Shown: positions 2,942 through 50,817 of the stretch, one piece after another
Numbering within the stretch: the first letter of the stretch is position 1
How the letters are laid out: the number at the start of each line of letters is the position of its first letter
NCBI GenBank assembly: GCA_964428205.1
Contig: CAYRXE010000002.1
Span: 1-62,048 of the forward strand
Length of the DNA: 62,048 bases
Direction: 5' to 3'
Origin: an uncultured Candidatus Peribacteria bacterium
Lineage (GTDB): Bacteria; Patescibacteriota; Gracilibacteria; Peribacterales; Peribacteraceae
Made by a program: the position numbers and the translations under genes
The notes under the pieces: generated by a model
Seen by the model: only the letters and a program-made list of their open reading frames with translations
What the model was told of the DNA's origin: nothing
Database searches by the model: none

Positions 2942-2961
2942 GTGGTAGAATTGGCTCTCAC

Positions 2962-3543
2962 ATGCGCATTCTCGCCCTCCAAACCGATCCGAATAAACTC
3001 AAAGCAGGGTTTATGTCCGCAGACGAGCGCGAGCTTACGACGGCGCATTTTCACTGGTTCAAATTCTTTGGTCCGTTCATGTGGACGGGATTTTTTACGC
3101 TAGGTGTCATTGCTCTGGGAGTGTGGTTGCCCATGCAATTCGAATTCTCGGTGGGCATCGTGGAGCCGATCTTGTTCCTCTTTTGGATCATCGTCGTGTT
3201 TCCCACTCTTCTGCGCGCTTACATTGATTGGAAGTACGACTTCATCGTCATCACCACAGACAAAGTTGTGATTGTTGATCAGTCGTCTATTTTCCGTCAG
3301 CGCATTACACCTATTAACCTCGAGAACGTGTCTGGGGTCTCGACCGAAACACAGTTCTGGAATCTGTTTCGCTTTGGCACGTTGCATTTGGACCTCACCG
3401 AAAGCGCTGGTGCCGAACACACACTTCGCTACGTGAAGCACGCACACGCTGTGGCAACCGCGGTTACTGAGGCGCTCACTATTTTCCAGCGCCGCAAGGA
3501 TCTTCGTCGGTACCCGCACGGAGAGGTAAAAGACGAGGTTTGA
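2962..3543 (+). CDS. Bacterial PH-domain (bPH_2 / YdbT-like membrane-flanked domain) protein
   Basis: ATG at 2962 inside ORF 2896..3543. It has two TM helices and then IDWKYDFIVITTDKVVIVDQSSIFRQRITPINLENV, typical of the membrane-flanked PH-like domain. Confidence 0.75.
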   Translation: MRILALQTDPNKLKAGFMSADERELTTAHFHWFKFFGPFMWTGFFTLGVIALGVWLPMQFEFSVGIVEPILFLFWIIVVFPTLLRAYIDWKYDFIVITTDKVVIVDQSSIFRQRITPINLENVSGVSTETQFWNLFRFGTLHLDLTESAGAEHTLRYVKHAHAVATAVTEALTIFQRRKDLRRYPHGEVKDEV

Positions 3544-3624
3544 TTAAGAACCAATCACCAAATCACAATGACCAATTGGTTATTGGAGCTTGGTGCTTGG
3601 TCATTCCCACGATAAGATTCTCTT

Positions 3625-4905
3625 ATGAGATTATCCACGTTATTCACGAAAACATCGAAAGAACGCGTTGCCGATGCCGATAGCAAGAACGCCGATCTGC
3701 TCGTGCGCGCAGGTTTCGTCTGGAAGACCATGGCTGGTGCCTACTCGTACCTGCCACTGGGTTTGAAGGTGATGCACAAGATCGAACAGATCGTCCGGGA
3801 GGAGATGGATGCCATTGGCGGTCAGGAATTACTCCTCTCTGCATTTGGTCCAAAGGAGTATTGGGAGAAGACCGGTCGTTGGGACCAAAAAGTTATGGAT
3901 GTGCTCTTCCATGTGCCTGGAGCAGGAGACCATGAGTACGCGCTCAACCCTACACACGAAGAAATCATCACGCCGCTCGCGATGCAGTACGTAAAGAGCT
4001 ACCGCGATCTTCCTTTTGCTGCGTATCAAATCCAGACCAAGTTCCGTAACGAGCTTAGGGTAAAGTCCGGCATCTTGCGTGGTCGCGAGTTCCTCATGAA
4101 GGACTTGTACTCCTTCCACACCGACCAAGCAGACCTCGAGAAGTTCTATGCCAAAGCACAAGGTGCCTACATGAAGGTGTTTGATCGCTGCGGCCTTGGC
4201 GATATGACGTATCTCACGTATGCATCCGGTGGCACCTTCTCTAAGTACAGCCACGAGTATCAGATTGTTCTGCCACAGGGCGAAGACACCATTTACGTGA
4301 GTCTGGAAGCCGAAAAGAAGGGTATGCGCATTGCCGTGAATAAAGAGATCTACGAAGAAGGTAAAACCGAGTGCCCTGTCACCGGTGGTAAGGAGTTCCG
4401 CGAAACCCAGGCGAGTGAAGCAGGCAATATCTTCCAGCTTGGTACCAAGTTCTCATCTCCATTTGGTCTCCAGTACAACGGCGAAGACGGCAAGCGCCAC
4501 GATGTGGTGATGGGTTGCTACGGAATCGGCATCAGTCGCTTGATGGGTATTGCTGCCGAAGCATTCTCCGATGACGCCGGTCTCGTGTGGCCACGAAATA
4601 TCTGTCCTGCAGATGTGCACATCGTTGCCATCGCAAAATCTGCCGATGAAGAGTCCTTCAAGAAGGCGACAGAACTCTATGAGCTCCTCACAAAGACGTA
4701 CAAATTAGATTGTCTCTTCGATGATCGCACCGATGTGACCGTTGGTTCCAAGATGGCCGATGCCGATCTTATCGGCGCGCCATACCGCGTGGTGATTTCG
4801 CCAAAGACGCTCGAAAAGAAGGAATTCGAGATCAAAGGCCGTGCCACAGGATCCGTCGAAATGCGCGACGAAGCAGCATTCCTGCGTATGATCGGGGTTG
4901 CGTAA
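3625..4905 (+). CDS. proS: Prolyl-tRNA synthetase, bacterial type lacking the INS editing domain
   Basis: 426 aa with a bacterial-type N-terminus (MRLSTLFTKTSKE..DADSKNADLLVRAGF). Class II motifs are present (FRNELRVKSGILRGREFLMKD; GCYGIGISRL). Only about 45 aa sit where the INS domain would be. Confidence 0.9.
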   Translation: MRLSTLFTKTSKERVADADSKNADLLVRAGFVWKTMAGAYSYLPLGLKVMHKIEQIVREEMDAIGGQELLLSAFGPKEYWEKTGRWDQKVMDVLFHVPGAGDHEYALNPTHEEIITPLAMQYVKSYRDLPFAAYQIQTKFRNELRVKSGILRGREFLMKDLYSFHTDQADLEKFYAKAQGAYMKVFDRCGLGDMTYLTYASGGTFSKYSHEYQIVLPQGEDTIYVSLEAEKKGMRIAVNKEIYEEGKTECPVTGGKEFRETQASEAGNIFQLGTKFSSPFGLQYNGEDGKRHDVVMGCYGIGISRLMGIAAEAFSDDAGLVWPRNICPADVHIVAIAKSADEESFKKATELYELLTKTYKLDCLFDDRTDVTVGSKMADADLIGAPYRVVISPKTLEKKEFEIKGRATGSVEMRDEAAFLRMIGVA

Positions 4906-4938
4906 TTACCCCGCAAAGCTAGGGGTGATTCTGCTGAA

Positions 4939-5349
4939 TCAGAACCAGAAGCCCATCAAGAGCCACGTGACGACGAGTCCAAAGAGGATTCCTCCCACGA
5001 CTTCTTTAAACGAGTGACCAAGCCTTACTTTAAGGCGCTTCCAGCGCTGCAAGCGGTTGAGGATCTCGGCCTGTTCACCAATCGCTCTGCGACTGTGGAA
5101 GGCGTCGTACCACACAATCGCGGCGAACGTGAAGGCGATAGCGAACTCAATCGATTCAATACCCGACGTGTGCTGCACGAGTACCAAGAGAGAGGTGACA
5201 AATGCAGAGTGTGTACTTGGCATGCCGCCACTCTGGAAGAGTTTCTCGTCCCAGTTACCACTCTTCACTCCGTGCCACAAAATTTTCGCAAAGTCAGAGA
5301 GCAGTGCGACGGCGAGTGGAAGGAGGAAGAAGGGGATGTGAGCGTACAT
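4939..5349 (-). CDS. Divergent PAP2 / DUF212 (acid phosphatase/vanadium haloperoxidase-related) membrane protein
   Basis: 136 aa and multi-TM, with the signature GGMPSTHSAFVTSL. Confidence 0.8.
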   Translation of the reverse strand: MYAHIPFFLLPLAVALLSDFAKILWHGVKSGNWDEKLFQSGGMPSTHSAFVTSLLVLVQHTSGIESIEFAIAFTFAAIVWYDAFHSRRAIGEQAEILNRLQRWKRLKVRLGHSFKEVVGGILFGLVVTWLLMGFWF

Positions 5350-5367
5350 AGCATTGAGTAGTGTAGC

Positions 5368-8300
5368 TTACGCGGCGTTCTGGATAGGAACTTCGTAGAC
5401 ATTCTGAGGATTACTAGGCAGCCAGAAGCGGATTTTCACAGCACCCGGGTCTGTAATACTACCTTCGCCAAGGTGTTGTTTTGTCTGGTTGAGTGAGAGT
5501 ACCTCGCTCTTCCTTCCATCTGCATATACGCATTGCCACTTCATACTTGGAAAAGGCAGACGGAAATAGAATTCTTGGGATCTGCGCATTAATGGAGTGC
5601 TAGTTTTTGTGTTCCAGAGCTGTACGTCGAGCGGCTGGTCAATAGTCGTGCCAGTTTTGGCATCTGCGTTCCTTACTTCTTTTTCAATCATCCAGAATGC
5701 AGCTTCATGTTTTTCGTTGATGGTTTTTAGAATAAGACCAATACGATTCCATTCGGTGCGCTGTGCTTGGCGCGCAGGGGAAAGAGATGAGTGCTTGTTC
5801 TCGTAGAGACCAACTCCGGCAGGCTGCCACGTGTTGCTCTTCGTGTCGCTCCATGCCCAAACACTGCCATTGAGTTTTACCGACATGCTCTCGCCTTCAC
5901 CCTGGAAGAGATACGAACCATCAGGCTGTAGCACGCCTCCTTTGAGTTCCATGAGCTTTGTGCCCATTGAAATCTGTTCGTTTTGTTCCAGAGGCCTCTT
6001 TTCATACTTATAAGGCAGGGGATTATCTAAGAGCCAAGACATTTCCAGCTGTTCGAACCCTTCTGAGCCGTGCTCAGGGATGACTGCTAAGTACGCACCT
6101 TTGCCCTCCAGTTCTGTTCGTTGAATCAGCTTCTCGCGAATACCCAAGCGAATACCGTCGTTTTGGAATTTGATAGGTTCGGTGTGAAGAATGCTTCTTA
6201 TCCTGGTTTGAGCCGCAAGCACATCTTCGTAGCGAATACTTCCAGGCTGTTTGAAGAGCGCTTCGGATTGATTGCGCAATTCTGTGCGAAGCATATCGGA
6301 TGCCATCACGATAGCAGTACGCTTGTGTAGGCTGTCACCGGGTCCAATTTTGTCGTAATCGGTTTCTTCTAATCTGCGGCGCAAGAAGTTAACGTCGTCT
6401 TCCACACTCAGGAGCAGCATTTCGCGAATACGTGTCTTGGCAGTCAGTTCCTTACGAGGCTCTACAGAGCTTTTCACAAAATTTATACCATCTGCCAATT
6501 CTTGATGACGATTGTTGAACTGTTGTTCTACAACTGCTTGTTTCTTTTTCCATCGTTCATCAACAGCTGCCCTGCCTTCATCTTCAGGATGATCACCAAA
6601 GTCGCTCAGTTTGTATCCATTGATGTCGTATTCTTCACCCAAACTTTGCGCCTGGCGTCCTTTTGCGCACAAATCTGCAAAGATACGTGCTTTGGCAAAC
6701 ACGTGTTCATCAACACTCGTCTCACCTGATCTACCCACATACTTCATGGCATCCAAAAGGTAGATGTCAAAACGCTTCTTAAAATTTTCTTTTGATTCTC
6801 CCATGCCGGGGTTCAAGCGTGCCGTTTGCACAAGGTATGCTTTGCAAAGCTCGCGAATTTGAGAATCTCCTGATTGCCTGCCAATTTCTGAGGCATCGGA
6901 CCACGAAGCCATAGAATAGAGCGCCGAGCCAAAGCTGCGAGGGTCACTTTCACTTTTTTGACGAAGTTGTACGAGGATATTGGCAGGAGTCTGATTGAGA
7001 TATTCCTTGTACGTACCGTAGACATCGGTGGCAATTGCTTCGACCTGTTTCCAGCCTTCCACTCCTACGCTTATGGCAAGAGCGACTGGGATAAGAACCA
7101 CGCTTGCCGTAGCGGCAACGCCGCTGACGAATGCGAGGGTGCCCACCACAACCGCAACGGTGTTTACGCCGAGGTTCGTGCCATGGATGATCCTTGTAGT
7201 TTCGTACAATTTTTGCAGTTCCTTGTTGCCTGTCTTTTTAACGTGGTCGATCTTGAGTTCGTTATCCATCAAGTCTTGGTATGCCATGTACGCAGCAAAC
7301 ACATCTGCGCCCACACCGAGCATGCGCAAAGCCACAACGGCCTTACTTGCCTTGTTGGCCATGCCCATGACCTTGCCGACTTCGGCCTCCTGGCCAGTGG
7401 CGATAGCTCCTTTAAACAGCTTCAATCCTTCTGGAGAGGATTGTAACTTCGTAATCATTTTTTCTGTTGCACCACCTTCGCGAAGTACTTGGAGAATTTT
7501 GGCGTCGTCTGCATTTGGTCCAAGTGCGAGGAGTTTGCTGTTAAGCGCCTTTGTTCCTTCTACACCTTCAGCAGCAGCTTTTGCGGGTGTTCCTGCTGGA
7601 GCTTTAGCTCCTGGATTTGCAGGAGGGGGTGCTTTGGGTGCGGACTTTGCCGCAGCGCCTGCGGCGGCTTTTTCTGCTTTGGTGAAATCATCGGCTGCAC
7701 CGCCAGCAGCTTTCCACGCAGCTGAGTCTTTGCCTGCCTTAAGGAAGTCGTCGGCAGTGGCTCCTAACGATCGCAACTCCTTGCAAGCAGCTGTCCTCGC
7801 AGCTTCGTCCAGATGCGTGGTTGCGTGCAGGAGATCGTCCATTTCGGCTCCAGCGGCCAATAGCTCTGTTGCGCTATGACCTACTTTCATAAGGTCTTCT
7901 GCCTTCGCAAATTTAACCATGAGCATCTTGTACAGCTCATCTTGGTATGCGATTTCTTTTCCTTTGAATGCATCTGCCCACTTCCAGAACTTCGCAGTTC
8001 TCAGTTTTCCGGGAACTTCTTTTAAGCGCAGTTCTTTCACACGCATTTTGCGTTGCACGAACTCTCTCAGTTGTGTGCGCTTGGTGACAAGATCGGTTTC
8101 ATTTCGCAATGAAGCACCGATTTCGTTTGCCACCTTCATGAGATCTGCATCGGATCCCGTTTCGATGATACCAATGATTTCTGGGCGGATGTTTGCATGG
8201 GCAAGCGCGTTGTTGATGCGTCTTCCTTCGAGGAACCCGAACATTTTGATGATTTTGACGTCGTGTGCGGTTTTCACCATGCCGCGCACCATGTTGATTT

Positions 8301-10524
8301 GCGACAAGCCCGGCGTGATGTTCATGATCATGCGCGTTTTCCAACCTTGATACAAAGGACCTCCTCCAATAGCCATTCTCTTTAACTTAGCGATCCATGC
8401 AGCATTCAAGGAAAACGCTGCAGAAGTAATGGCACCACCCGTCACGTTGACGCCCCAATCACTCCAGTCGCGTGAGGCAGTCATGTTAAAGGGGTTCATT
8501 CCCAGTGCATCCATGGCCAAATCCACCGGCACCATGAAGTACTTGACGGTGTTTCCAAAGGGATCATCGAAGATGTACAGGAAGTTGCCTACCACCATCG
8601 CGACACCTTTGTTTTCGGTAATCTTTTCTCCGGTTTTTCTTGCCTGCTCCTGGTGCTCACGCACTTTATCGAGAGCATTCGAAAGCCAGTAGTTTACAAA
8701 GTTCTCGCCATGGCGCAGGCGCTCAGATAGGGCTTTGAGCTTGGCACGATCCGTAATGGACGGATGTACGCAGAGATCAAATGCCTCGGGCATATCTTTG
8801 GACTTCCAAGTCACCACTTCTCCTGTGTCATCCACGGTGATGTCGAGTGCAGCAAGGCTGGTTTTTAACCCTCTCAGCTGTGTCGCCGTGGTGTCGCTCT
8901 CGCGGTCATCGGTGCAGCGCGTGCGCAAGTAGGTAATGCGGTATTCCTCCAATGCTTGAATCGCTTTTTCACAAGCATCACCGCGTCCTTCGTTGCGCTT
9001 GTCGGTGCTTGTACGCACGCCACGCAGTTGCATTTCCAAATAGTGATGCAGCGCATCCATGCATGCTTCGTTATTTTGTGCGATCAATTCCTCTGGAGTC
9101 ATGCCTACCATTTCTGGAACAGATTCTGAAATCAATACCACAAGAGTTTCCAAGTGCTTCGTGATCCAAGGAATAACCTGCTCTCCGATTTCACCAATTT
9201 TATTCATCAAATCCTTCAAGCCATTGAGTGCAGAACCTGCGGCATCGCCGACGTCTTTTGCGTCCACTCCCATGAACAACTCACCATTCATGCATGCCTT
9301 AGACAACTGGTGCAGGTTTTCGGGGAGAAGAACGTTGTCCTTTAATTTTTTGAGCCCAATGATGGATCCTCCCAAAAGAAACAGTGATAACAGAGGGTGA
9401 TTGATGCCCCATTTGAGCATGGTTTTTCCAATCTCGGCGGCCTTTTTGGCAATACTGAGAGGGGAGGTGAGGATCGACTGAAGAATGTTCAAACGCGCTG
9501 CAATGATTGCGCCAACAGCGACCTCGAACTTGTGTCGTTCCACCCACTTACCCAATTCAAACAAAGCCGTACCCAAATCATCTTCGTAGTTCTGGAGTGC
9601 CACAGAAGCTTTGACGTAATTCACGCCATTGCGACTGACTTCCACTTTGTACTTCTCCTGCATGTCTTTCATGAATTTCTCAAATTGCGGACTCGTCTCC
9701 CCATCTTTGAGTCCAAAGATAGCCGAGATTTCTTTTCTGCCTCCTTCGCCCTTTGTCTTATATACATGTTCTGCTTTTTCGTAGTCTTCTTTCGAGAGTC
9801 CGTACTCCGCCTCTTTGGAACCCGGCAACATGCCCTTCAATTTGCCTTCAAGACCATTGATCATTTTGGCGTACTTATCGAACTTCATGAGCATCTTGTG
9901 TCCTGCGTACAAACCCAGTGCTGCCAAGCCAATGCCCGGAATCCAGTAGATAAGGCTTCCCCAGCCACTTTTCTTGCCCTGAGCCTGTTCTGTGCCAGAG
10001 CCGGTCATCCATCTCCACAGTTTTCTGCCAAGGTATGCGACACCAATGGCTCCCACAGTGAGGGCAGACACTGTTGCAATCTGCTTACCGGACCACTCGC
10101 GAGCATCCCATGTGTGCGGGAGCCAAGCTTCCGCCTCTGCTGCTTTTGCTGGAGCAGAAGGGGCAGAGGCTTTTTCACCATGAACTTCTTTTTCTTCTTC
10201 CGTACGACGTGTGCGCATCTGTTCAATTTTTTCTTGCAGCTGCTTCATGCGTTCATTGGCTCCACCGCGCAATTGATCCAGAACATCGGTACGTGCCTCT
10301 TCCAAAATATCATGCGTTGCCTTGAGAATGAGATTCTTCTGTTCCTTGGTCTCGTTCTTTAACTCCGTTTTCATTAAATCCAACGCCTGCTCGCAGCGCT
10401 TTACCTGCTCTTCGCGCTGATAGGGGGTCTGCTTTGGTCCACGAATGAGCTCATTCACGCTTTCTTGCCCTTGGGACATGGCATTGCGAAGACTTTGTAC
10501 TTCGATGGCTGCAATGGGCGTCAT
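5368..10524 (-). CDS. Giant (1718 aa) orphan membrane protein: coiled-coil head, TM hairpin, further TM blocks, large C-terminal domain
   Basis: Uninterrupted 5.1-kb ORF. It has a K/E/Q-rich N-terminus, a hydrophobic hairpin near aa 155-212, more hydrophobic blocks near aa 335-400 and 1060-1110, and an A/P/K-rich linker. I recognise no enzymatic motif. Confidence 0.85.
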   Translation of the reverse strand: MTPIAAIEVQSLRNAMSQGQESVNELIRGPKQTPYQREEQVKRCEQALDLMKTELKNETKEQKNLILKATHDILEEARTDVLDQLRGGANERMKQLQEKIEQMRTRRTEEEKEVHGEKASAPSAPAKAAEAEAWLPHTWDAREWSGKQIATVSALTVGAIGVAYLGRKLWRWMTGSGTEQAQGKKSGWGSLIYWIPGIGLAALGLYAGHKMLMKFDKYAKMINGLEGKLKGMLPGSKEAEYGLSKEDYEKAEHVYKTKGEGGRKEISAIFGLKDGETSPQFEKFMKDMQEKYKVEVSRNGVNYVKASVALQNYEDDLGTALFELGKWVERHKFEVAVGAIIAARLNILQSILTSPLSIAKKAAEIGKTMLKWGINHPLLSLFLLGGSIIGLKKLKDNVLLPENLHQLSKACMNGELFMGVDAKDVGDAAGSALNGLKDLMNKIGEIGEQVIPWITKHLETLVVLISESVPEMVGMTPEELIAQNNEACMDALHHYLEMQLRGVRTSTDKRNEGRGDACEKAIQALEEYRITYLRTRCTDDRESDTTATQLRGLKTSLAALDITVDDTGEVVTWKSKDMPEAFDLCVHPSITDRAKLKALSERLRHGENFVNYWLSNALDKVREHQEQARKTGEKITENKGVAMVVGNFLYIFDDPFGNTVKYFMVPVDLAMDALGMNPFNMTASRDWSDWGVNVTGGAITSAAFSLNAAWIAKLKRMAIGGGPLYQGWKTRMIMNITPGLSQINMVRGMVKTAHDVKIIKMFGFLEGRRINNALAHANIRPEIIGIIETGSDADLMKVANEIGASLRNETDLVTKRTQLREFVQRKMRVKELRLKEVPGKLRTAKFWKWADAFKGKEIAYQDELYKMLMVKFAKAEDLMKVGHSATELLAAGAEMDDLLHATTHLDEAARTAACKELRSLGATADDFLKAGKDSAAWKAAGGAADDFTKAEKAAAGAAAKSAPKAPPPANPGAKAPAGTPAKAAAEGVEGTKALNSKLLALGPNADDAKILQVLREGGATEKMITKLQSSPEGLKLFKGAIATGQEAEVGKVMGMANKASKAVVALRMLGVGADVFAAYMAYQDLMDNELKIDHVKKTGNKELQKLYETTRIIHGTNLGVNTVAVVVGTLAFVSGVAATASVVLIPVALAISVGVEGWKQVEAIATDVYGTYKEYLNQTPANILVQLRQKSESDPRSFGSALYSMASWSDASEIGRQSGDSQIRELCKAYLVQTARLNPGMGESKENFKKRFDIYLLDAMKYVGRSGETSVDEHVFAKARIFADLCAKGRQAQSLGEEYDINGYKLSDFGDHPEDEGRAAVDERWKKKQAVVEQQFNNRHQELADGINFVKSSVEPRKELTAKTRIREMLLLSVEDDVNFLRRRLEETDYDKIGPGDSLHKRTAIVMASDMLRTELRNQSEALFKQPGSIRYEDVLAAQTRIRSILHTEPIKFQNDGIRLGIREKLIQRTELEGKGAYLAVIPEHGSEGFEQLEMSWLLDNPLPYKYEKRPLEQNEQISMGTKLMELKGGVLQPDGSYLFQGEGESMSVKLNGSVWAWSDTKSNTWQPAGVGLYENKHSSLSPARQAQRTEWNRIGLILKTINEKHEAAFWMIEKEVRNADAKTGTTIDQPLDVQLWNTKTSTPLMRRSQEFYFRLPFPSMKWQCVYADGRKSEVLSLNQTKQHLGEGSITDPGAVKIRFWLPSNPQNVYEVPIQNAA

Positions 10525-10530
10525 AAGGGT

Positions 10531-10749
10531 TTAGAGGGGCTTATTAAAGAGTCCACGAACGAGGTGATACGCGCTTTTTCCAATGCCATGAATGGAACGA
10601 CCTACGACATTGCTCGTAACCGCACCTGCTTCCACTGCTCCGCTCATGAGGCCATTCACTGCCCAGCGCAAACGAGACTGCCTGGAGCCAATGGCACCAG
10701 ATTCTGGAGCGAATTCCTGAGCCTCTGAATGCTTGAGTGTTTCTGACAT
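10531..10749 (-). CDS. Small (72 aa) hypothetical protein within the orphan operon
   Basis: ATG start. It lies 9 nt after the upstream stop and 6 nt before the giant gene. Gly/Ala/Val-rich middle segment (AVNGLMSGAVEAGAVTSNVVG). Confidence 0.55.
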   Translation of the reverse strand: MSETLKHSEAQEFAPESGAIGSRQSRLRWAVNGLMSGAVEAGAVTSNVVGRSIHGIGKSAYHLVRGLFNKPL

Positions 10750-10758
10750 GCGCAGGGA

Positions 10759-12063
10759 TTAGGAAGCGGTTTTTACTTCTTCGAATACATAATCAAGAGA
10801 TGCCTTTTTAGGCTTTGCACCTTTCGCATCAAGGTCGCTCCAGACTTCCAAGTTACCTTGCGAGCGATTGCCGTCTTTCTTTGCCCTGATGAAACTTGCG
10901 GCAAGTTGTTCCTGGTCAATAAACCCGTTGCCAACCATTGGACCAATTCCTCCTTCCAATTTGAGCATAGGCCCGCGCAATGCACCGCCCTCGTAGGTCG
11001 TTGCTTTTTGTAGAACCGAGAAGAGATCAGCCTCTGCGTATTCTCCCTTTGCATCGAGTTTCACTTGATCAGGGTATGCAGTAGCAATGCCTTTCGCTGT
11101 CGCCTTTTTAAGCATGGTATCGAGCTTTACCGAACCCTTGATAGAGTATGGCTTTCCATCAATGACGATGTGCTTCTTCTCTTTAGAGAACTGCACATTC
11201 ACACTCTCTACTCCAAAATAAAATTTCACGGGTGTGGTGAGGTGGAGCAAATTTGTGTTTTTAATTCGTTCGTCGTGGAAATCCACCGAGCTAAGCTTAT
11301 CCATCTTGAGACGCTCTTCTACTGTTTTAGCACCTGCCTTATCTGCCTTATCTTTCTCATCAGCCTCAGTTTTTGCCTGGGCTTCTTTATGTTTGTAGTA
11401 CTTATATCCTCCATAGGTCGCCAAACCCGCAACGATTGCTCCCCATGCCAATTTGCTGCCGTTTGCCAGTTTGTCCCACAGCCATGAAACAGCTTTGTAG
11501 GTAAGGTAACCGGCTGCGAGGAGGCCTGTGCCCACGAGGATCTTGCCGCCGGTGCCGCCGTTTTCCCACATATCTTTCATGCGGTCTCTCACGGCAGGGA
11601 TGGTGCCTTTTTCTTTCGCTTCTTCGAGGAATCCTTCGACACGCTTTTTACCTTCTTGGTAGACCTCGGTTTTTTCGACCTTCTTCACAATTGCTTTTCC
11701 TTCCTCGTAGCCGCGCTGTAATGCCTCATTGCCAGCGTCGACCGTAGTTTCGGTCGCGGGTTTGAGAATATCGGGCATGACTTCCGCAGCTTTCTTTCCT
11801 GAATCCGTTGGGAGCAGAGGCTCTTCGATTTTGTGTTCCTCCAGAGTGGTTTCAAGATCGGTCAGAGCTTCTTTCGTATCCTGCTGCTTTTGCTCTTTGA
11901 GGTGCTTTTTTACAGAGGAACGCAGGGTGCGCAATTCGTCACGGTTCTTGAGCTTCATCTGTGGTACATGCTCTTTGACCGCTTTCGCAGCATCGCGGAT
12001 CTTGTTGGGATCCGTTTCGTTGCCCGTAAGTGTTTTAAGATGTTCGCTCATAGAGTGAGACAT
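10759..12063 (-). CDS. Orphan coiled-coil / TM-hairpin protein (434 aa)
   Basis: Charged helical N-terminal 160 aa, then the hairpin GGKILVGTGLLAAGYLTYKAVSWLWDKLANGSKLAWGAIVAGLATYGGYKYY, then a roughly 190-aa C-terminal domain. The architecture parallels the giant protein. Confidence 0.8.
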   Translation of the reverse strand: MSHSMSEHLKTLTGNETDPNKIRDAAKAVKEHVPQMKLKNRDELRTLRSSVKKHLKEQKQQDTKEALTDLETTLEEHKIEEPLLPTDSGKKAAEVMPDILKPATETTVDAGNEALQRGYEEGKAIVKKVEKTEVYQEGKKRVEGFLEEAKEKGTIPAVRDRMKDMWENGGTGGKILVGTGLLAAGYLTYKAVSWLWDKLANGSKLAWGAIVAGLATYGGYKYYKHKEAQAKTEADEKDKADKAGAKTVEERLKMDKLSSVDFHDERIKNTNLLHLTTPVKFYFGVESVNVQFSKEKKHIVIDGKPYSIKGSVKLDTMLKKATAKGIATAYPDQVKLDAKGEYAEADLFSVLQKATTYEGGALRGPMLKLEGGIGPMVGNGFIDQEQLAASFIRAKKDGNRSQGNLEVWSDLDAKGAKPKKASLDYVFEEVKTAS

Positions 12064-12083
12064 ACGAAATATGAAAGAAATAC

Positions 12084-12884
12084 TTAGGCTTTTGGTTTGA
12101 GAACCTGTGTTCCCACAAGTGCGTAGAGGTTAATTTCTGCAGGCTTCGTTTCATCTACTTTCTTCAGCTCTTCGGCATTTTTAGGATGCTCGATAAACGC
12201 AGCTGCTTTATCGATCGCATACTCAGCTAATGTCTTTTTGCTCTTCGATGACTTCCATTCGTCGTACAGTTTTTGTACGGCATCATCATCATTTTGCTTT
12301 CCCTTACCTTCTGCGAGTTTGAGAGTCTTTGGGAGAGTAGCTTTTACCTTCTTGCGAATGTCAGTTTTTGCAAAATATTCCATGTACAAGTTATCGGCGA
12401 TTTCGGAATGTTCCGAAGCGTCCTTGTAGCCAAGTAGCTTTAAAATGCCTCCTTTGGCCTTTCCAAAGAAACTTACAATTGCCCCCATACCTCCTGCAAG
12501 AGTTTCATTTTCGAGGATGCTCGTCAGAAATCCTTTCTTTTTCGCATCCGCGGCGAGCTCTTCAGCACTTTTATTTTCTGGATTATAGGCACTCTCAACA
12601 GGTGCAGCAGGAGCGGCTGGCGTCGTTTTTTCTACCACATCGATATGTGTATCAAGCTCTTCCAGAGCTTTTGCGACTTCCGTTTTTACCTCGTTCGTTC
12701 CTTCTAGCTTTTTGAGCGTGAGGGTGTGTGTCTTACGGTAGGTGTCGATTTTACCTTTGAGTTCCTTGCGACCCTCAGAAGAGCGCTCATGCACCTTCTT
12801 TTTCGCGGCTTCCTTGTGCTCATGTTGCACATCCGCGTCGGAGAGACGTTCGCCTTTATCGAGCTTCTCAATCAGGTGCGACAT
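12084..12884 (-). CDS. Orphan charged/coiled-coil protein (266 aa), first gene of the operon
   Basis: It starts MSH.. like the next gene. K/E-rich head, a PAAPAAP linker, and the amphipathic Gly-rich segment LAGGMGAIVSFFGKAKGGILKLLGY. Confidence 0.75.
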   Translation of the reverse strand: MSHLIEKLDKGERLSDADVQHEHKEAAKKKVHERSSEGRKELKGKIDTYRKTHTLTLKKLEGTNEVKTEVAKALEELDTHIDVVEKTTPAAPAAPVESAYNPENKSAEELAADAKKKGFLTSILENETLAGGMGAIVSFFGKAKGGILKLLGYKDASEHSEIADNLYMEYFAKTDIRKKVKATLPKTLKLAEGKGKQNDDDAVQKLYDEWKSSKSKKTLAEYAIDKAAAFIEHPKNAEELKKVDETKPAEINLYALVGTQVLKPKA

Positions 12885-12996
12885 ATGGTTGTTGGTATGG
12901 ACCCTTCAAATATTGAAAGGTTTCTCCTTATTATAGCAGTTTTGCCCTTCTCCTTCAATCGCGGTAGGCTCAAGCCGTTTTCCCACTTCATACACT

Positions 12997-13353
12997 ATGA
13001 ACATCCAGCACTTCGAGAAAGGACTCCACTACTCAGACCAGGAGTTTTTGGCTATTGCTCGCAAATTGGGCAAGTTGGCCACCTACTGTAAGCGTGCCAA
13101 GGACGAGGCTTCATTCATTCGCATCGAATCCGAGCGCCGCGATACCAAGAAGGACAATGACCAGGTGCAGGTCGCTATCACGGTCGAATTGCCTCATAAA
13201 ATCCTGCGTGCAGAGTCGCTCAAGCGCCAGGTGCTCGAAGCTGTGGATCGCTGTGTCGACAAGTTGGAGCCTCAGCTCATCAAGTACAAAGAGCTGCACA
13301 TGAACAAAGCTCGCGCTCGCAAGCGCAAGGGGAGTAAGCCTTGGGCAAACTAA
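12997..13353 (+). CDS. hpf: Ribosome hibernation promoting factor / RaiA family (short HPF)
   Basis: 118 aa. The pattern VQVAITVELPHKILRAESLKRQVLEAVDRCVDKLEPQLIKYKE is typical of the sigma-54 modulation/S30EA family. Confidence 0.8.
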   Translation: MNIQHFEKGLHYSDQEFLAIARKLGKLATYCKRAKDEASFIRIESERRDTKKDNDQVQVAITVELPHKILRAESLKRQVLEAVDRCVDKLEPQLIKYKELHMNKARARKRKGSKPWAN

Positions 13354-17986: not shown

Positions 17987-19663
17987 TTATCCGCCTAGCT
18001 CCTCCAGTCTTTGCCTGGCAGGGGTGTTTTCGGGGTCCATCTCCAGCGCTGTGCGGTACATCTCCTTCGCCTCCGCAATTCTGCCCTGTTCTTCCAAGAC
18101 CAATCCGAGCAGCTGGTAAAAATGTGCAGAAGGGCGTGCCTCATCGATGGACTGTCGCAGGTACGCCTCGGCGTTCTTCCACTGACCGTCTTGGATGAGC
18201 ATGCTCACGACCGCAATGCGCGGAGCAGGATCCACCATGCTCGATTGTGCAGCGGCTAAGAAATGTTGAAGAGCTTCTTGGTGTTTCCCTTGCTCACGTT
18301 CAATCACTCCAATATTAAAGAGGGTTGTTGCGTCCTGTCGGATTTGCAGAGACTTGTAGAAGTTCTGGAGCGCCGCATCCACTTGTCCCATCTTGTACAA
18401 CTCCGTACCAATATTCGTGTACGCAACGTACGCATTCTTGTGATACTTGATCGTCTGCGTGAAGAGCGAAGTCGTATCGAACCACGTGCGAGCGAGGAAG
18501 AAGGAGAGGATCGAAAGCACGATCATGACCACTGTTGTCGCAGCGAGAACGACGCGCTTTATCAGCATGTCTTGCTCCAGTAATTTGCTGATACCTAAGC
18601 CACAAAGTAAGAAGATGCCAATCACCGGCAAGTACGCATAGCGGTCACTCGTGATGTACACGTCGAGGAGCTCATTGTGGCCCTTGGCGATGTTCGTCAT
18701 TGATGGTGCGAGCAGCACGAGGAACCAGGCGAGAGCAAACAGCGGAGATCGGTTTTTAGTTTTGATCCACACGATCACCGCACCAACAATCAACGCGATC
18801 AGGAGTAACAAGGATCCCAAAATATCCGGAGTCAGAAGCGAGATAGGCTGTGTGTACGGATAGAGGACGGAGAATCCAACGGGATACACCAGATGAACGA
18901 GATGCAACACGACGCTGCGTGCACCCATCAAGATTTTTTCGAAGAAGAATTCATCCGTTGATGACTTGCCGAGACTCGCGATGATCACGAAGAGCACACT
19001 CAGTGCAAAGAAGGGGATCAGCTCTATCCATGTTTTCTTGGTGAGAGGTTTTTGTCGGTACCAATCCAACAGCAGTAAGATCAACGGCAGGAAGACAATC
19101 GACACCTTCGACATCAGACCAAGCGCAAAGGATCCCAAACTCACGGCATACCAGAGCCAAAAACGGCTCCCATCCTCTTTCTTGAGATAGGCCCCCAGAG
19201 AAAGGAGAAAGAAGAATGCAGCGAGGACATCCTTACGACCGCTCACCCACGCAACTGCTTCGACGTTGATGGGGTGGATAGCAAAGAGGAGTGCAGTGAC
19301 GATCGCCGCTACTCGGTTTTTCGTGACGGCAAACATCACCCATGCAACCATCAGTACAGATCCAACGTGGAGGAGGAGATTGACCAAGTGGTACCCAAAC
19401 GGAGAGAGTTCATGGAGTGAGTAGTTGATCTGGAAACTCAGCAATGTGAGCGGGATGTACAACTCCGGGTCGTACGTCGTGAATGCCCGCACAATGTTCG
19501 TCCAGGTCAGGCCGTGTGCTGTTGGGTTTGCTGTCACAAGCAACGCGTCATCCCACACCACAAAGCCATTCATCAAAGACCATCCGTAAATCAGTGCCAA
19601 GACCGCGGCTATTACAGCCGCGAACAGGAAAGACTTTTTGCGCGAAGCGAACAAACGATCCAT
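17987..19663 (-). CDS. GT-C-like polytopic membrane protein with C-terminal TPR repeats (TMTC/PMT_2-like putative protein O-glycosyltransferase)
   Basis: 558 aa. The first loop is FVVWDD (acidic pair). There are about 10 TMs, including LFAIHPINVEAVAWVSGRKDVL, which is typical of the DUF1736/TMTC-like family. TPR repeats occupy the last 170 aa or so. Confidence 0.8.
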   Translation of the reverse strand: MDRLFASRKKSFLFAAVIAAVLALIYGWSLMNGFVVWDDALLVTANPTAHGLTWTNIVRAFTTYDPELYIPLTLLSFQINYSLHELSPFGYHLVNLLLHVGSVLMVAWVMFAVTKNRVAAIVTALLFAIHPINVEAVAWVSGRKDVLAAFFFLLSLGAYLKKEDGSRFWLWYAVSLGSFALGLMSKVSIVFLPLILLLLDWYRQKPLTKKTWIELIPFFALSVLFVIIASLGKSSTDEFFFEKILMGARSVVLHLVHLVYPVGFSVLYPYTQPISLLTPDILGSLLLLIALIVGAVIVWIKTKNRSPLFALAWFLVLLAPSMTNIAKGHNELLDVYITSDRYAYLPVIGIFLLCGLGISKLLEQDMLIKRVVLAATTVVMIVLSILSFFLARTWFDTTSLFTQTIKYHKNAYVAYTNIGTELYKMGQVDAALQNFYKSLQIRQDATTLFNIGVIEREQGKHQEALQHFLAAAQSSMVDPAPRIAVVSMLIQDGQWKNAEAYLRQSIDEARPSAHFYQLLGLVLEEQGRIAEAKEMYRTALEMDPENTPARQRLEELGG

Positions 19664-19686
19664 GGGGATCAGTGTATGATTCTTCT

Positions 19687-22176
19687 ATGCCTAAGGCCAA
19701 GACCGATTCGGCCGAAAACCCCAATCTTGAATCCCTGCGCAAGCGCATAGCCAAAGCGCCGCAGGATGCAGGTGTGTATCGCTGGAAGGACGCAGACGGA
19801 ACCATCCTCTATGTGGGGAAGGCGAAGAATCTTCGTAATCGTTTAAAACAGTACGTCACGGGACCCGCGAGTGCGCATGGTCCGTGGAAGCAGAGTTTTT
19901 TGCGTAAAGTGGCGGACTTCGAAATCACCGTTACGGGTAGCGAACTCGAAGCACTGATTTTGGAAACGAATATGATTAAAGAGAATCGACCCAAGTACAA
20001 CGTGCTCATGAAGGACGATAAGAACTACGTGTATGCACGCGTGACCATCAACGAAACATATCCGCGTGTGGAGTCGGTGCGTTTTTTGAATCTCAAAGAT
20101 GGTGCACTCTACTTTGGGCCCATCCTCAGCAACAGTGATCTGTGGGAAACACTCACTGCCATTAGAACCGTATTCCCGTTTCGCACTTGTAAAATGGATA
20201 TACAGACTGTTTCAGGGGAAAAGATGAATGATGAATTAAGAGAGATGAAAGACGAGAATATTCATCATTCATCACTCATCTCTCATCATTCTCCAGATAA
20301 AAAGATTATTCCCATTGATGTCGTTTGCTCTCACAGAGATAGGCCAACGCCGTGTTTGGATCATCACATTGGTAAATGCGGTGCCCCCTGTGTAGGTCTT
20401 GTGACCCCTGAAGAATACAAACGTGACGTGATCGATGGCGTCATCCGGTTTTTGAAAGGGGATTACGACAGTGTGAAAAATATTCTCACGGTGCGCATGC
20501 AACAGGCCGCTGCCGAGAAGAAGTTTGAACTCGCGGGAAAGTTACGAGATCAAATGACGGCGATGGATCGCTTACAAGGAAAACAAATCATCAGCGATAC
20601 CACAGGAGAAGATGCCGACGTGATTGCGATTGCCATCAAGAGTGGTCATGCACATGTGTGCGTATTGCGTCGCCGTGATGGACGCATAATTGGAGACGAA
20701 GAAGTGGCGCTCATGGGAGTCGCCGAAGAGCCAGAAGTCACACTGGGGGAATTCCTCGCGCAGTTCTACGCCGACCGCGAAATCCCACAGCAAATCATCC
20801 TCTCGCACGAACCACCGGATATGGCTGTTTTGGGCCAGTGGCTCAGCGAAAAGCGAGGTACGAAGGTGCAAATGCTCCTACCAGAACGAGGCACAAAATC
20901 GAAGCTTTTGCAGATGGCAGAAAAGAACGCACTCGAGAAGGCGCGTACGAGTGAACTCAAGTGGGAAGCAGAGGAGAGGAATACGAAAGGTGCTGTGCGC
21001 GAGCTTGCAGAAAAAATCCTTCCCAATTTTACAACAGCGGAGCATGGCGATGCGTCGAAGACGCCGCTGCATCGAATAGAATGCTATGACATCAGTCATA
21101 TGGGAGGGAACGAGACAGTCGCAAGTATGACCGTCGCACTCGATGGCAAGCTCGACAGCAGTCACTATCGCTCCTTTAACATGCGCACGGTCAAGGAGGG
21201 AGACATCGATGACTACCGATCATTGAGGGAGGCGCTGCTCCGTCGACTGCGACGTTTGCATGACGATCTCCCTGAGGAAGAAAAGAGGTGGAATGCGAAA
21301 GGTGTGACCTTTGGCAAAGCTCTCAAAAAAGATGCGGAGTTCATTGCCAACGTGGTGGCAGACAGCCCGGGAGACATAGGGTCCGACGGACTGGAGGATT
21401 CCGTATTTTGGCTCGCCAAAAAGGAAAACGAGATCATCGCCTGTGCGCGGTTTTACGAGTATCCCGGCAAGGTTCTCACGCTGCGCTCACTCTGGGTTTC
21501 TCCCGATCATCGTGGTGAAAAACTGGGGCTCATGTTGCTACGTCGCATGCTGAAGACGGTGAAGAAGGGCAAGGTGTACTTGCACTGCAAAGAAGCTCTT
21601 GGTGAGTACTACGGAGAGATTGGATTCCGCTACGTCATCAAACCGCCAAAACCGTTGCAGGAAAAAATGGATGCGTTTCACAAAGAACATCCCGAAGCCG
21701 AGCCAACGAGTATTTTCCTCTGGGAGGCGTTGCAGCATAAAGTGGATCCTTCTTTTAGTGCGCGTCCCGATCTCCTCGTGATCGACGGAGGCAAAGGGCA
21801 ACTGAGTACCATCGTCGAAGTCCTCAAAGAATTGAACTTGGATATTCCGGTGATTGGTCTCGCGAAGCGTGAAGAAGAAGTGTTCGTCCCCAATAGAAGT
21901 GATCCGATTCTTTTCGAGAAAGATAGCCCGGGAAAATTCCTGCTCATGCGACTCCGTGATGAGGCCCATAGGTTTGCGAATTTGAAGCGTGAGGGCAGGG
22001 GACTCGCCGATGCAAAGCGATCTGCATTGGACAATGTACCGGGTATAGGGCCCGAGACGCGCAAAGCGCTCATGCTTAAATTTATGACGCTCACGGGCAT
22101 TAAGAAGGCTCCGGATAGCGAACTTTTGAAGATTCTCACGCAGGGACAACTGGAGCAGGTAAGAAAACATCTGTGA
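19687..22176 (+). CDS. uvrC: Excinuclease ABC subunit C with two in-frame insertions (low-complexity insert and GNAT-like domain)
   Basis: Start at ATG 19687 (MPKAKTD...). GIY-YIG module (GVYRWKDADGTILYVGKAKNLRNRLKQY), UVR domain (FELAGKLRDQ), endonuclease core (ECYDISHMGG...LLVIDGGKGQL) and a C-terminal HhH (VPGIGPETRKALM). Confidence 0.9.
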   Translation: MPKAKTDSAENPNLESLRKRIAKAPQDAGVYRWKDADGTILYVGKAKNLRNRLKQYVTGPASAHGPWKQSFLRKVADFEITVTGSELEALILETNMIKENRPKYNVLMKDDKNYVYARVTINETYPRVESVRFLNLKDGALYFGPILSNSDLWETLTAIRTVFPFRTCKMDIQTVSGEKMNDELREMKDENIHHSSLISHHSPDKKIIPIDVVCSHRDRPTPCLDHHIGKCGAPCVGLVTPEEYKRDVIDGVIRFLKGDYDSVKNILTVRMQQAAAEKKFELAGKLRDQMTAMDRLQGKQIISDTTGEDADVIAIAIKSGHAHVCVLRRRDGRIIGDEEVALMGVAEEPEVTLGEFLAQFYADREIPQQIILSHEPPDMAVLGQWLSEKRGTKVQMLLPERGTKSKLLQMAEKNALEKARTSELKWEAEERNTKGAVRELAEKILPNFTTAEHGDASKTPLHRIECYDISHMGGNETVASMTVALDGKLDSSHYRSFNMRTVKEGDIDDYRSLREALLRRLRRLHDDLPEEEKRWNAKGVTFGKALKKDAEFIANVVADSPGDIGSDGLEDSVFWLAKKENEIIACARFYEYPGKVLTLRSLWVSPDHRGEKLGLMLLRRMLKTVKKGKVYLHCKEALGEYYGEIGFRYVIKPPKPLQEKMDAFHKEHPEAEPTSIFLWEALQHKVDPSFSARPDLLVIDGGKGQLSTIVEVLKELNLDIPVIGLAKREEEVFVPNRSDPILFEKDSPGKFLLMRLRDEAHRFANLKREGRGLADAKRSALDNVPGIGPETRKALMLKFMTLTGIKKAPDSELLKILTQGQLEQVRKHL
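20223..20284. repeat. Interleaved inverted repeats inside uvrC
   Basis: GATGAATGATGAAT (20223-20236) pairs with ATTCATCATTCATC (20260-20273). GAGAGATGA (20240-20248) pairs with TCATCTCTC (20276-20284). Confidence 0.8.
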
Positions 22177-38505: not shown

Positions 38506-39639
38506 TTACGGGGTTCCGCCCGATGACTCCTGCCATATGCTGATTCCGTTTGGCATCTTGCCAACCTCTATGCGCCTGATTTCCGCGTCTGTGGAGGTAT
38601 TAATAACAGAAACGTCATTGCTAAGGAGATTAGTGACATACACTTCTTTCCCATCGGGAGAGACCACCACTCCATGAGGTGCATCTCCAGCCGGAATGTC
38701 CTTCACAACGCTGCGAGAAAGGAGATCAATTTTGTACACGGTCTTTCCGGTGGGTTGCTCGAAGTAGTAGCCCTGATCCGCGACGTACAGGAAGCGGCTG
38801 TCAGGAGTCGGGTAGAGCTGAATCGGTCCCTTCGATTCTTCTGGCAATTCAATGTAACTCACTTCCTTCGTTGCCGTTTCTACAAGAGCAATCTGCTTGG
38901 TGTCGTACAGGGAAACAGCCGCCCACTTCCCATCCGGCGTAACTGCCGTCTGCACGGCATTACCTTCAAGAGGAATTGTCGTAACTGTGTCTGTTGCCAG
39001 ATCGAGGACGCCAACCGCTTTTCCCCCTAAGAGGGCGACATACGCTGTCTTGCCATCGGAACTAATACGCAGGCCATGTGGCTCGCTACCCTCTGAGACC
39101 ATCACTTCTTTGACCAGCTCCAAGCGTCGTGCATCAATCTTGTAGATCGTGTTTTTCTCCTGTGCAGTGGCGTACGCGAATGAACCGTCCTCTGCTACGA
39201 CAACGTGTGCGAGATGTGCTCCGGTATCGAGAGGAATGCGCCTTATAATCGTATCAGTGTGGGGGTCAATGACGATTACCTGATCGGGCATTGTGTTTTC
39301 ATCGCCGTGCTCATTCCCGCTACCGTGCTCCCCGTTTTCCTCATGTCCGCCTCCTTCTTCGGAATGGCTGAGATTTGCCGTCACCCACACTGTTTTCCCA
39401 TCAGGAGCTACCTGCACGTTGTGAGGTGCGAACTCGCGGTCAATCCCATCCGCCTGCTCGGAAAGATCCACGGTCTTCATGACCGAACCTGTCACCGGAT
39501 TGAGAACAGCAATATGGCCTTCTCCCTCGGCTGCCACGTAGATTTTCTGGGAGACTTCACTATCAGCGACTGGACTTGCGGAACAGGCTGCAAGAAAGAG
39601 AGCGAGAAAGGCCGACGAAGCACGCGAGAGAAGTTTCAT
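38506..39639 (-). CDS. YVTN-family beta-propeller lipoprotein with His/Glu-rich insertion
   Basis: Lipobox LFLAAC. Repeated propeller blades include a literal YVTN (EVYVTNLLSNDVSVI). The insertion HSEEGGGHEENGEHGSGNEHGDEN maps to nt about 39285-39363. Confidence 0.85.
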   Translation of the reverse strand: MKLLSRASSAFLALFLAACSASPVADSEVSQKIYVAAEGEGHIAVLNPVTGSVMKTVDLSEQADGIDREFAPHNVQVAPDGKTVWVTANLSHSEEGGGHEENGEHGSGNEHGDENTMPDQVIVIDPHTDTIIRRIPLDTGAHLAHVVVAEDGSFAYATAQEKNTIYKIDARRLELVKEVMVSEGSEPHGLRISSDGKTAYVALLGGKAVGVLDLATDTVTTIPLEGNAVQTAVTPDGKWAAVSLYDTKQIALVETATKEVSYIELPEESKGPIQLYPTPDSRFLYVADQGYYFEQPTGKTVYKIDLLSRSVVKDIPAGDAPHGVVVSPDGKEVYVTNLLSNDVSVINTSTDAEIRRIEVGKMPNGISIWQESSGGTP

Positions 39640-40797: not shown

Positions 40798-40818
40798 CCA
40801 CTTATTAAGATTGATGAA

Positions 40819-45526: not shown

Positions 45527-45601
45527 TGGCAGGCCCACGGAGAATCGAACTCCGATTAGCGGACTGAAAACCCGCTGTCCTAACCGTTAGACGATGGGCC
45601 C
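45527..45601 (-). tRNA. tRNA-Glu (anticodon UUC), CCA encoded
   Basis: The reverse complement is GGGCCCATCGTCTAACGGTTAGGACAGCGGGTTTTCAGTCCGCTAATCGGAGTTCGATTCTCCGTGGGCCTGCCA. Anticodon stem GCGGG/TCCGC, loop TTTTCAG. Confidence 0.9.
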
Positions 45602-47233: not shown

Positions 47234-47316
47234 ATGCAGGCGAGTGTACCAGCAGCCTACTCTTCGTGCATCAAGTCCTATGGTGCCATCCATCATTTTG
47301 GGTTTAGGATTGGTTC

Positions 47317-50728: not shown

Positions 50729-50817
50729 CTCAAGAGCATCTCAGGTACTCACTCACAATTATCATATGAGATGCATGTATTCTTTACTTAACGCTCTAAA
50801 AATCTGACATGCTAAAC

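Follow-up and report, generated by a model that had tools for sequence, protein, structure and literature searches.

A Peribacteria operon around a giant hairpin-bearing helical protein: conserved chassis, variable cassettes and a possible role as membrane scaffold

Which function can be assigned to an operon whose products match nothing described so far, neither as families nor as folds? This question is raised by a stretch of 62,048 nt from the Candidatus Peribacteria contig CAYRXE010000002.1 (GCA_964428205.1), the whole of which is referred to as the window in the following. On its minus strand, four tightly packed open reading frames (ORFs) encode proteins of 266, 434, 72 and 1718 aa that we term A266 (12084-12884), B434 (10759-12063), C72 (10531-10749) and the giant (5368-10524). 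According to the ORF list they are separated by exactly 20, 9 and 6 nt and diverge from hpf, the gene for the ribosome hibernation factor (12997-13353, plus strand), just as noted in a preliminary description of this DNA. Our observations tentatively suggest a lineage-specific, non-enzymatic, membrane-anchored helical scaffold in which a constant chassis is combined with exchangeable modules.

The operon is preceded by a single promoter-like site on the minus strand (12930-12958; TTGAAG, a 17-nt spacer and TG-TATAAT) that is sigma-70-like by consensus match only and lies some 45 nt before the A266 start codon, within the 112-nt divergent intergenic region between A266 and hpf. No minus-strand terminator-like site was found inside the operon (12884 to 5368). 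Together with a gene order that recurs in related genomes, these features support the multi-protein, membrane-associated apparatus put forward in the preliminary description, with A266, B434, C72 and the giant acting as a single conserved unit. As read from the sequences, none of the four proteins carries an N-terminal signal peptide or hydrophobic signal segment, and A266, B434 and C72 are completely free of cysteine.

The earlier statement that the proteins cannot be matched to an enzyme, transporter, secretion or cell-division family also held. Searches against Pfam, NCBIfam, PHROGs and PADLOC gave nothing above threshold for the four proteins and only sub-threshold repeat and coiled-coil noise for 27 diverse relatives and 10 neighbour proteins, while PDB sequence searches with single proteins and with the profiles A1, A4 and A6 returned only stathmin, apolipoprotein and like compositional matches. 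Repeats at aa 875-958 of the giant touch PF25296 (Decapeptide; 17 bits, cut-off 45) and the DotG/IcmE model NF033900 (17.6 bits, cut-off 750), in both cases below threshold, and one relative, P0003, carries PF25296 in its precomputed annotation. No account of the giant or of the family defined by its hp3 module, described below, was found in literature searches.

In the AlphaFold2 (AF2) secondary structure, obtained for aa 125-1300 and for the hp3 module, the giant is almost wholly alpha-helical, and its parts are arranged in the order coiled-coil-like N-terminal head, hairpin 1, mid domain including hairpin 2, AG-type repeats with an Ala/Pro linker, hp3 module and variable C-terminus. Hairpin 1 (aa 148-207, with helices at aa 148-166 and 189-207 assigned by hydrophobicity; 9904-10083, minus strand) is flanked by the motif DxREWSGKQIAT…WIPGIGLAALGLYAGHKML and is the best-conserved stretch among the closer relatives, with about 48% identity even to P0005. 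Hairpin 2 (aa 335-391; 9352-9522, minus strand) includes a conserved HP motif (H376/P377). In the mid domain of about 650 aa, 34 positions are conserved to at least 80%, most of them Gly, Pro or residues with an aromatic or aliphatic side chain; H376, E479, S600, R622 and K715 are the only polar ones, and no catalytic-type motif was seen among the conserved positions. Short L-x-A-A-G-x-x-A-D-D-F repeats and then an Ala/Pro-rich linker (together aa 875-1000; 7525-7902, minus strand) lead to the hp3 module (aa 1005-1296; 6637-7512, minus strand), a compact all-alpha unit that represents the signature of the family. It harbours an uninterrupted, uncharged hydrophobic stretch of 44 residues (aa 1112-1155; 7060-7191, minus strand), which we read as a third hairpin with a tight turn and which is followed by about 560 further residues. 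Across relatives this stretch spans 41-58 residues, and D1074, N1100, P1146 and A1229 of the module are almost invariant. The AF2 model of hp3, built from 36 diverse sequences, features about 15 helices in a compact all-alpha arrangement (predicted local distance difference test, pLDDT, 78.8; predicted template modelling score, pTM, 0.64). Foldseek found no fold match for it either in PDB (best E 0.8, template modelling score, TM, < 0.3) or in BFVD (best E 2.1).

How widespread is this protein? An exhaustive HMMER search of 1.84 billion representatives, with aa 125-1300 aligned with four orthologues as the query (A2), retrieved 179 clusters at E <= 1e-3 and 101 at E <= 1e-30. None of the 179 carries a name, and the ten that were checked hold 1-3 sequences each. 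Word-indexed protein searches returned just 4 or 5 relatives; the A1 profile contributed one new protein and A4 none, probably because low-complexity words swamp the 8000-candidate filter. Scanning 185,579 species genomes for hairpin-1 motifs yielded four loci, three of them labelled Peribacteria, Peregrinibacteria or Peribacteraceae, a number that under-counts the family because these motifs alone were used. Every named record among the relatives belongs to Peribacteria/Peregrinibacteria. The 151 retrieved relatives have a median length of about 1390 aa and a maximum of 2376 aa, and hairpins recur at similar positions across them. The hp3 module is present in 128 of these proteins, hairpin 1 was recognised in 44 and the mid domain in 58, and other members bear different middle domains; the family is therefore modular. 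Its signature consists of G-x-x-G-D-x-F…N-x-x-L-x-x-L-Y…L-P… around the 41-58-residue hydrophobic stretch, combined with a small protein of 70-100 aa encoded directly upstream, and this combination is found in the window. A hidden Markov model (HMM) of 97 hp3 sequences matches the giant at 1.6e-67, a score that is not independent as the giant's own hp3 segment is part of the HMM.

The small partner C72 is soluble and rich in small and basic residues. It shares 74% identity with a 72-aa protein from the locus L001 of a close relative, with a ratio of nonsynonymous to synonymous substitution rates (dN/dS) of 0.12, and alignment and HMM scans place a homologue of 68-99 aa next to the giant, on its upstream side, in 10 of the 14 other distinct loci that we compared, the window being the fifteenth. 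With an HMM from which the sequences of the window and of L001 had been excluded, C72 still came out on top of 579 window ORFs (E 1e-3; runner-up 0.17).

The two accessory proteins are far less constant. B434 combines a K/E-rich helical head of about 170 aa with a Gly/Trp/Tyr-rich hairpin (aa 176-226 as read from the sequence; 11386-11538, minus strand) and a C-terminal domain of about 200 residues, which contains VNVQFSKEKKHIVIDGKPYSIKG and, judged by its sequence, seems to be beta-rich. Its only recognisable relative is the 217-aa protein of L001, which is 31% identical to the N-terminal half (E 8e-21, BLASTP) and aligns with the hairpin. The same layout is found in proteins from L011 (355 aa), L017 (435 aa), L018 (346 aa) and L014 (770 aa), and by inspection only the VNVQFSKEKKHIVIDGKPYSIKG motif recurs in the 346-aa B-like protein of L018, in the A-like proteins of L009, L011 and L012 and in a 197-aa protein of L008. 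A pooled B-family HMM proved too diffuse and misses even B434. In A266, a K/E/A-rich head of coiled-coil-like character is combined with an amphipathic, Gly-rich segment at about aa 128-150, and a transmembrane segment is absent. No homologue of A266 was detected by BLAST, HMM or hhalign, including a comparison with a profile of seven A-like proteins; proteins in the equivalent position have 264 (L001), 364 (L002), 366 (L008), 385 (L009), 392 (L011) and 338 aa (L018). A-like and B-like partners are thus common upstream, yet they diverge past recognition. From the charged head and hairpin that B434 and the giant have in common, the preliminary description had concluded that the apparatus is paralogous. 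As architecture, the common layout stands; as evidence of common descent it fails, since A266, B434 and the giant show no BLASTP similarity to each other, the hairpin-1 HMM misses B434, and a profile-profile alignment of the B family with the N-terminus of the giant extends over 12 columns only, at 53% probability.

Comparison of the neighbourhoods revealed that the order A-like, B-like, small protein and giant recurs in related genomes. This is the synteny that the preliminary description had proposed to look for, and a characterised system into which the proteins would fall has not turned up. The small gene is usually preceded by one for an A-like protein with a helical head, a central amphipathic segment and sometimes a small C-terminal domain, and often one or two B-like proteins per locus are present, each with a helical head, a hairpin and, in part of the cases, a C-terminal domain. 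Examples are L001 (264, 217, 72 and 1759 aa), L011 (392, 355, 79 and 1497 aa), L018 (338, 213, 346, 80 and 1342 aa), L002 (364, 83 and 1533 aa), L009 (385 and 82 aa, followed by the giant) and L012 (366, 81 and 1771 aa). The small protein and the giant make up the invariant core of the system. The operon of at least seven distinct loci is situated between a divergent hpf on one side and the genes for DUF212 and ProRS on the other, with genes for L25, a GT2 glycosyltransferase and H+-PPase close by. This shared housekeeping position argues for vertical inheritance and thus for a long-standing resident of the chromosome, not a mobile element. There is no adjacent hpf in L004, L006, L007 and L014.

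The evolution of the operon becomes apparent when the window is compared with L001, where the flanking housekeeping proteins are 90-97% identical on the amino acid level (DUF212 97%, PPase 95%, hpf 94%, L25 93%, ProRS 92%, GT2 90%). PF02482 was found on the hpf product of L001. BLASTN aligns the two stretches in the blocks 2961-5352, 7661-10727 and 12920-13344, with no match between them. The middle block, with 83% nucleotide identity, comprises C72 and aa 1-955 of the giant, and similarity is regained from 12920 onwards (promoter, hpf) as well as below 5352 (DUF212). No nucleotide alignment with L001 was obtained across 10728-12919, i.e. variable cassette 1 with A266 and B434 (minus strand), or across 5353-7660, which contains variable cassette 2, the giant from about aa 955 to its end at aa 1718 and the stop codon (5368-7660, minus strand). 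Codon analysis gave a concordant picture with 83-97% amino acid identity for aa 1-900 of the giant, 22-35% for aa 1000-1718 and 27-35% for A266 and B434. Over aa 1-900, dN/dS relative to the L001 orthologue is 0.02-0.15, indicating that the N-terminal 900 or so residues are under purifying selection.

Do the variable parts reflect selection in place or replacement? As dS is saturated in them, dN/dS cannot separate in-situ positive selection from recombination. A test of nearest relatives favours replacement. The N-terminal part of the giant is 90% identical to P0002 and the hp3 module only 31%; the hp3 module of the window is nearest to P0095 (33.6%, compared with 30.6% for P0002), and that of L001 is nearest to P0037 (39.7%), then P0048 (37.2%), such that the C-terminal halves of the sister proteins are not mutual nearest relatives. 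Relative to the more distant L002, both halves have diverged similarly (34.5% for the N-terminal and 29% for the C-terminal half). This pattern indicates that two cassettes of about 2.2-2.3 kb have probably been replaced by recombination, with edges at gene or domain borders; the internal edge, where BLASTN identity ends at 7661, lies in the region of the repeats and the Ala/Pro linker. Since a conserved block splits the variable ones, either two events took place or matched sets are kept under selection. No repeat pair anywhere in the window involves 5368-12884, notable tandem arrays are absent, and there is no reverse transcriptase among the scanned window ORFs. Repeats of the type used by diversity-generating retroelements or shufflons were considered as a source of variability and dismissed, as none were found in the window.

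In the scaffold reading that we favour, the operon would be vertically inherited and specific to Peribacteria (candidate phylum Peregrinibacteria). Its core would consist of the giant and soluble C72, with two or three hydrophobic hairpins pinning the roughly 1700 residues of the giant to the cell membrane, and B434 with its helical head, its own hairpin and a small C-terminal domain and A266 with its helical head and amphipathic segment would act as accessories. In the absence of signal peptides and with hairpins as the only hydrophobic elements, the default topology would place every large domain on the cytoplasmic face, and in conjunction with the lack of an enzymatic signature this points to a cytoplasm-facing, hairpin-anchored scaffold. 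The most likely role would be that of a structural membrane scaffold or tether in a cytoskeleton-like or envelope-organising assembly, possibly one that marks a pole or a cell-cell contact site, as proteins of the Mycoplasma terminal organelle do. HMW1, HMW2, HMW3 and P65 of the Mycoplasma pneumoniae terminal organelle are non-enzymatic cytoskeletal scaffolds not known to have hydrophobic-hairpin anchors. They resemble the proteins studied here in being operon-encoded, lineage-specific, very large and helical or coiled-coil with Pro-rich linkers and in stemming from a small-genome, partner-dependent bacterium. C72 and aa 1-955 of the giant would make up the chassis, and A266, B434 and aa 955-1718 of the giant the exchangeable parts. 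That these three are exchanged suggests that they bind to one another or to a fast-changing external partner. It is conceivable that all four proteins form a complex, in which A266 and B434 would interact with the C-terminal half of the giant and C72 with the N-terminal half.

Several points weigh against this picture. The loop of hairpin 1 is rich in K/R (on average 7.3 in about 24 residues, compared with 2.7 and 3.4 in the flanks), which by the positive-inside rule misfits a simple N-in/loop-out hairpin and renders the topology uncertain. The hairpin helices of B434 are only weakly hydrophobic and stay below the Kyte-Doolittle cut-off of 1.4. A266 owes its membership to position, as ORF length, composition and equivalent location are its only support. 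An AF2 model of aa 125-1300 from five sequences was unusable (pLDDT 44), with meaningless Foldseek output, and in the hp3 model confidence falls only across the hydrophobic stretch, where pLDDT is low. Exposed proteins that recognise partners or take part in conflicts are more typically subject to exchange of whole cassettes at a fixed locus than internal scaffolds are, and the function as a scaffold has been deduced from architecture alone.

The preliminary description had likened the layout to that of chlamydial Inc proteins (IncA is one example). The likeness pertains to a bilobed hydrophobic hairpin anchor in place of an ordinary multi-pass topology, to long helical or coiled-coil domains confined to a single membrane face, as the default topology would have it here, and to a lineage-restricted, fast-evolving nature. 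A bilobed hydrophobic domain of about 40-60 residues does exist in the giant, but the best case is aa 1112-1155 and not the segments originally quoted; hairpin 1 and the hairpin of B434 consist of two helices each, joined by loops of about 8-24 residues. A sequence relation is not apparent, as an Inc family is missing among the Pfam matches even at E <= 1, and neither is the secretion context, as the scanned ORFs of the 62-kb window contain no gene for a type III secretion system (T3SS). Inc proteins are T3SS substrates of about 100-400 aa with the hairpin near the N-terminus, whereas those of the operon are up to 1718 aa long, bear as many as three hairpins and have a head of 150-170 aa before the first, and the organism belongs to the candidate phyla radiation (CPR), not to Chlamydiae. 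No T3SS is known from CPR bacteria. In pore-forming colicins, Bcl-2 and the diphtheria toxin T domain, an all-alpha module of 200-300 aa likewise encloses a long uncharged hairpin, here aa 1112-1155, between amphipathic helices, but hp3 lies inside a giant protein, and neither the ten-helix colicin fold (Foldseek, values for PDB as given above) nor a Pfam Colicin profile was recovered. DotG/IcmE and PF25296 share short AG-x-x-x-x-(D/E)-L repeats with aa 875-958 of the giant. The repeat is all they have in common: the match to NF033900 is confined to these residues instead of covering the full length above 750 bits, and no other type IV secretion component is present. Polymorphic toxins and contact-dependent inhibition (CDI) systems (CdiA, Rhs) resemble the operon in having a conserved N-terminal part and a recombining C-terminal part with a sharp boundary between them, as found here, and in residing at a fixed locus. 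They differ in that the variable part of the giant amounts to about 760 aa and keeps the conserved module of the family and in that two upstream genes co-vary instead of a downstream immunity gene. Polymorphic toxin domains and delivery domains (T5/T6/T7, Rhs) were absent from the Pfam and NCBIfam scans, and there is no co-varying downstream gene.

These comparisons bear on a partner-directed function, in which the proteins, or just the C-terminal half of the giant, would exit the cytoplasm and form a membrane-inserting effector or contact apparatus whose hairpins enter, or form a pore in, the membrane of a host or neighbour and whose cassettes set partner specificity. The layout would be Inc-like, or colicin/Bcl-2-like with a hydrophobic hairpin borne within a soluble helical bundle. 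Replacement of A, B and the C-terminal half of the giant between sister genomes would be in line with this, as would a compact helical hp3 module built around 41-58 uninterrupted hydrophobic residues, and Peribacteria have been inferred to be symbionts. According to Anantharaman et al. 2016 (PMC4736985), it is chiefly in very large proteins that strains of Candidatus Peribacter riflensis differ, which fits the mosaic pattern of the operon. The same study stresses exported Cys-rich proteins in Peribacter, and those encoded here, Cys-free or Cys-poor, are unlike these giants. Moreover, signal peptides are missing in all four proteins, no secretion-system gene occurs in the operon or its conserved neighbourhood, the hp3 model matches neither colicin nor Bcl-2 nor any other fold, and no Pfam toxin or Inc domain was found. 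DUF212, encoded downstream, is 97% identical where the C-terminal halves of the giants share about 30%, and thus lacks the co-variation expected of an immunity gene; as it also lies apart from the giant in some loci, an immunity-like role of DUF212 was ruled out. We therefore regard an effector of this kind as unlikely. The same holds for a broader version, a new apparatus for interaction between cells or for insertion into membranes, with specificity cassettes on a constant chassis that are swapped by recombination during adaptation to partners or enemies, working without a known secretion system and with a fold outside PDB, to which we would give just a minor chance.

A role in conflict with phages is more doubtful still. 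A membrane-anchored sensor or effector for abortive infection or superinfection exclusion, with variable modules that track phage proteins, would account for the sharp mosaic diversification and for a rare, patchy family of singleton clusters, and in L011, L017 and L019 a gene for a PD-(D/E)XK nuclease follows directly 3' of the giant. Nevertheless, no PADLOC model, and thus no known anti-phage system, matches any of the five proteins scanned; the operon of the window lacks any nuclease, ATPase, protease or other effector domain, the locus lies within a housekeeping region syntenic across genera instead of in a defence island, and the chassis is under ordinary purifying selection. Nor do the proteins resemble phage tail tape-measure or structural proteins: there is no PHROG match, the best BFVD hit has E 2.1 and the neighbours are housekeeping genes. 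Similarly improbable is protection of the membrane during stress or dormancy, co-regulated with hpf, with amphipathic K/E-rich helices that would coat and stabilise the membrane much as PspA, LEA proteins or apolipoproteins do. Divergent transcription from hpf over the shared 112-nt region, an adjacency kept in at least seven loci, and weak apolipoprotein-type matches of A-like proteins and the head of the giant would be in line with it, but these matches are sub-threshold and of the kind that a biased composition commonly produces, the adjacency may reflect nothing more than synteny and is not seen for the systems of L004, L006, L007 and L014, and both the conservation of the 650-aa mid domain and the exchange of cassettes are left unexplained. 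Finally, A266 without a homologue and accessory proteins that diverge beyond recognition might suggest fast-decaying low-complexity ORFs that persist by chance and form no functional system. This reading is contradicted by the dN/dS values (0.12 for C72, 0.02-0.15 across 900 codons of the giant), by the 179 related clusters, in which modules are conserved, and by the conserved gene order.

Some features of the surroundings deserve mention. DUF212 (PF02681; 4939-5349, minus strand) is a membrane protein of 136 aa, and its gene, not included in the preliminary description, begins 18 nt past the stop codon of the giant as the fifth gene on the same strand. It is possibly co-transcribed with the operon, and it is probably not part of the system as it evolves like a housekeeping gene (97% identity). 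Genes for the PD-(D/E)XK (Cas4-like, PF12705) protein are located directly downstream of the giant at 11020-11805 in L011, 12914-13735 in L019 and 9649-10191 in L017, in L011 and L019 between the giant and DUF212, and are absent from the window; the proteins of L011 and L017 are 38% identical. A pair encoding 7TM_transglut (PF14402) and ATP-grasp/MATCAP (PF14397, PF08014) proteins resides between L25 and hpf in L002 (4038-8086), L018 (400-4463) and L019 (2315-6211) and is missing in the window and in L001. Between hpf and the A-like gene, L009 (7833-8048) and L011 (3587-3802) contain a conserved ORF of 71 aa with 80% identity, which has no counterpart in the 112-nt intergenic region of the window. 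Two giant systems are arranged back to back in one genome (L016, 1-12806, GCA_964562645.1, and L014), with proteins of 770, 135, 127 and 2376 aa on one strand and of 714 and 1601 aa on the other. The latter two represent a giant that is split or frameshifted in this assembly, as both cluster with an intact protein of 2324 aa from another sample.

Elsewhere in the window, uvrC (19483-22176, plus strand) encodes the GIY-YIG and RNase H domains of UvrC with an inserted GNAT acetyltransferase at about aa 637-716. This fusion is also present in L001 (1-1585, according to the gene table) and, judged from the sequence only, in L006 (17325-19730, 801 aa), and this unusual UvrC architecture seems to be conserved in the lineage. 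A protein of 1326 aa (56598-60578, minus strand) with four K319L-like PKD domains, Big_7 and Ig domains is probably a surface or adhesion protein. Large ORFs without a Pfam match are located at 23498-25339 (plus strand, 613 aa), 25355-27649 (plus strand, 764 aa), 41396-44848 (minus strand, 1150 aa) and 45656-47296 (minus strand, 546 aa). The last of these, with 4.2% cysteine and a signal-like N-terminus, recalls the Cys-rich exported proteins of Candidatus Peribacter, and genes for a DsbB-domain protein (40150-41109) and a lactonase-like beta-propeller (38506-39639) are found nearby. A direct repeat starting with AAAAATCTGACATGC occurs at 50798-50841 and 60686-60729, about 9.9 kb apart in intergenic-looking positions, and may be a shared regulatory motif. 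A protein with a pseudopilin-type N-terminal methylation motif (48342-48797, plus strand) and the competence protein ComEC (49289-50728, minus strand) constitute type IV pilus or DNA-uptake equipment typical of CPR bacteria, and no link to the operon was seen. The tRNA-Glu genes at 1560-1634 and 45527-45601 (minus strand) have the anticodons CTC and TTC and are 74% identical.

In uncultured Peribacteria and other CPR bacteria, the organisation of the envelope and the attachment to partners are largely unknown and most large proteins are unannotated. The hp3 module together with the small partner is the signature of a lineage-wide system in a fixed position and as such provides a defined target for study, and the evolution of chassis and cassettes offers a trackable marker for strain-level differentiation in Peribacteria. 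If the variable modules are internal, the operon would stand for a new family of bacterial membrane scaffolds; if they face a partner cell or phage, it would represent a new type of specificity system.

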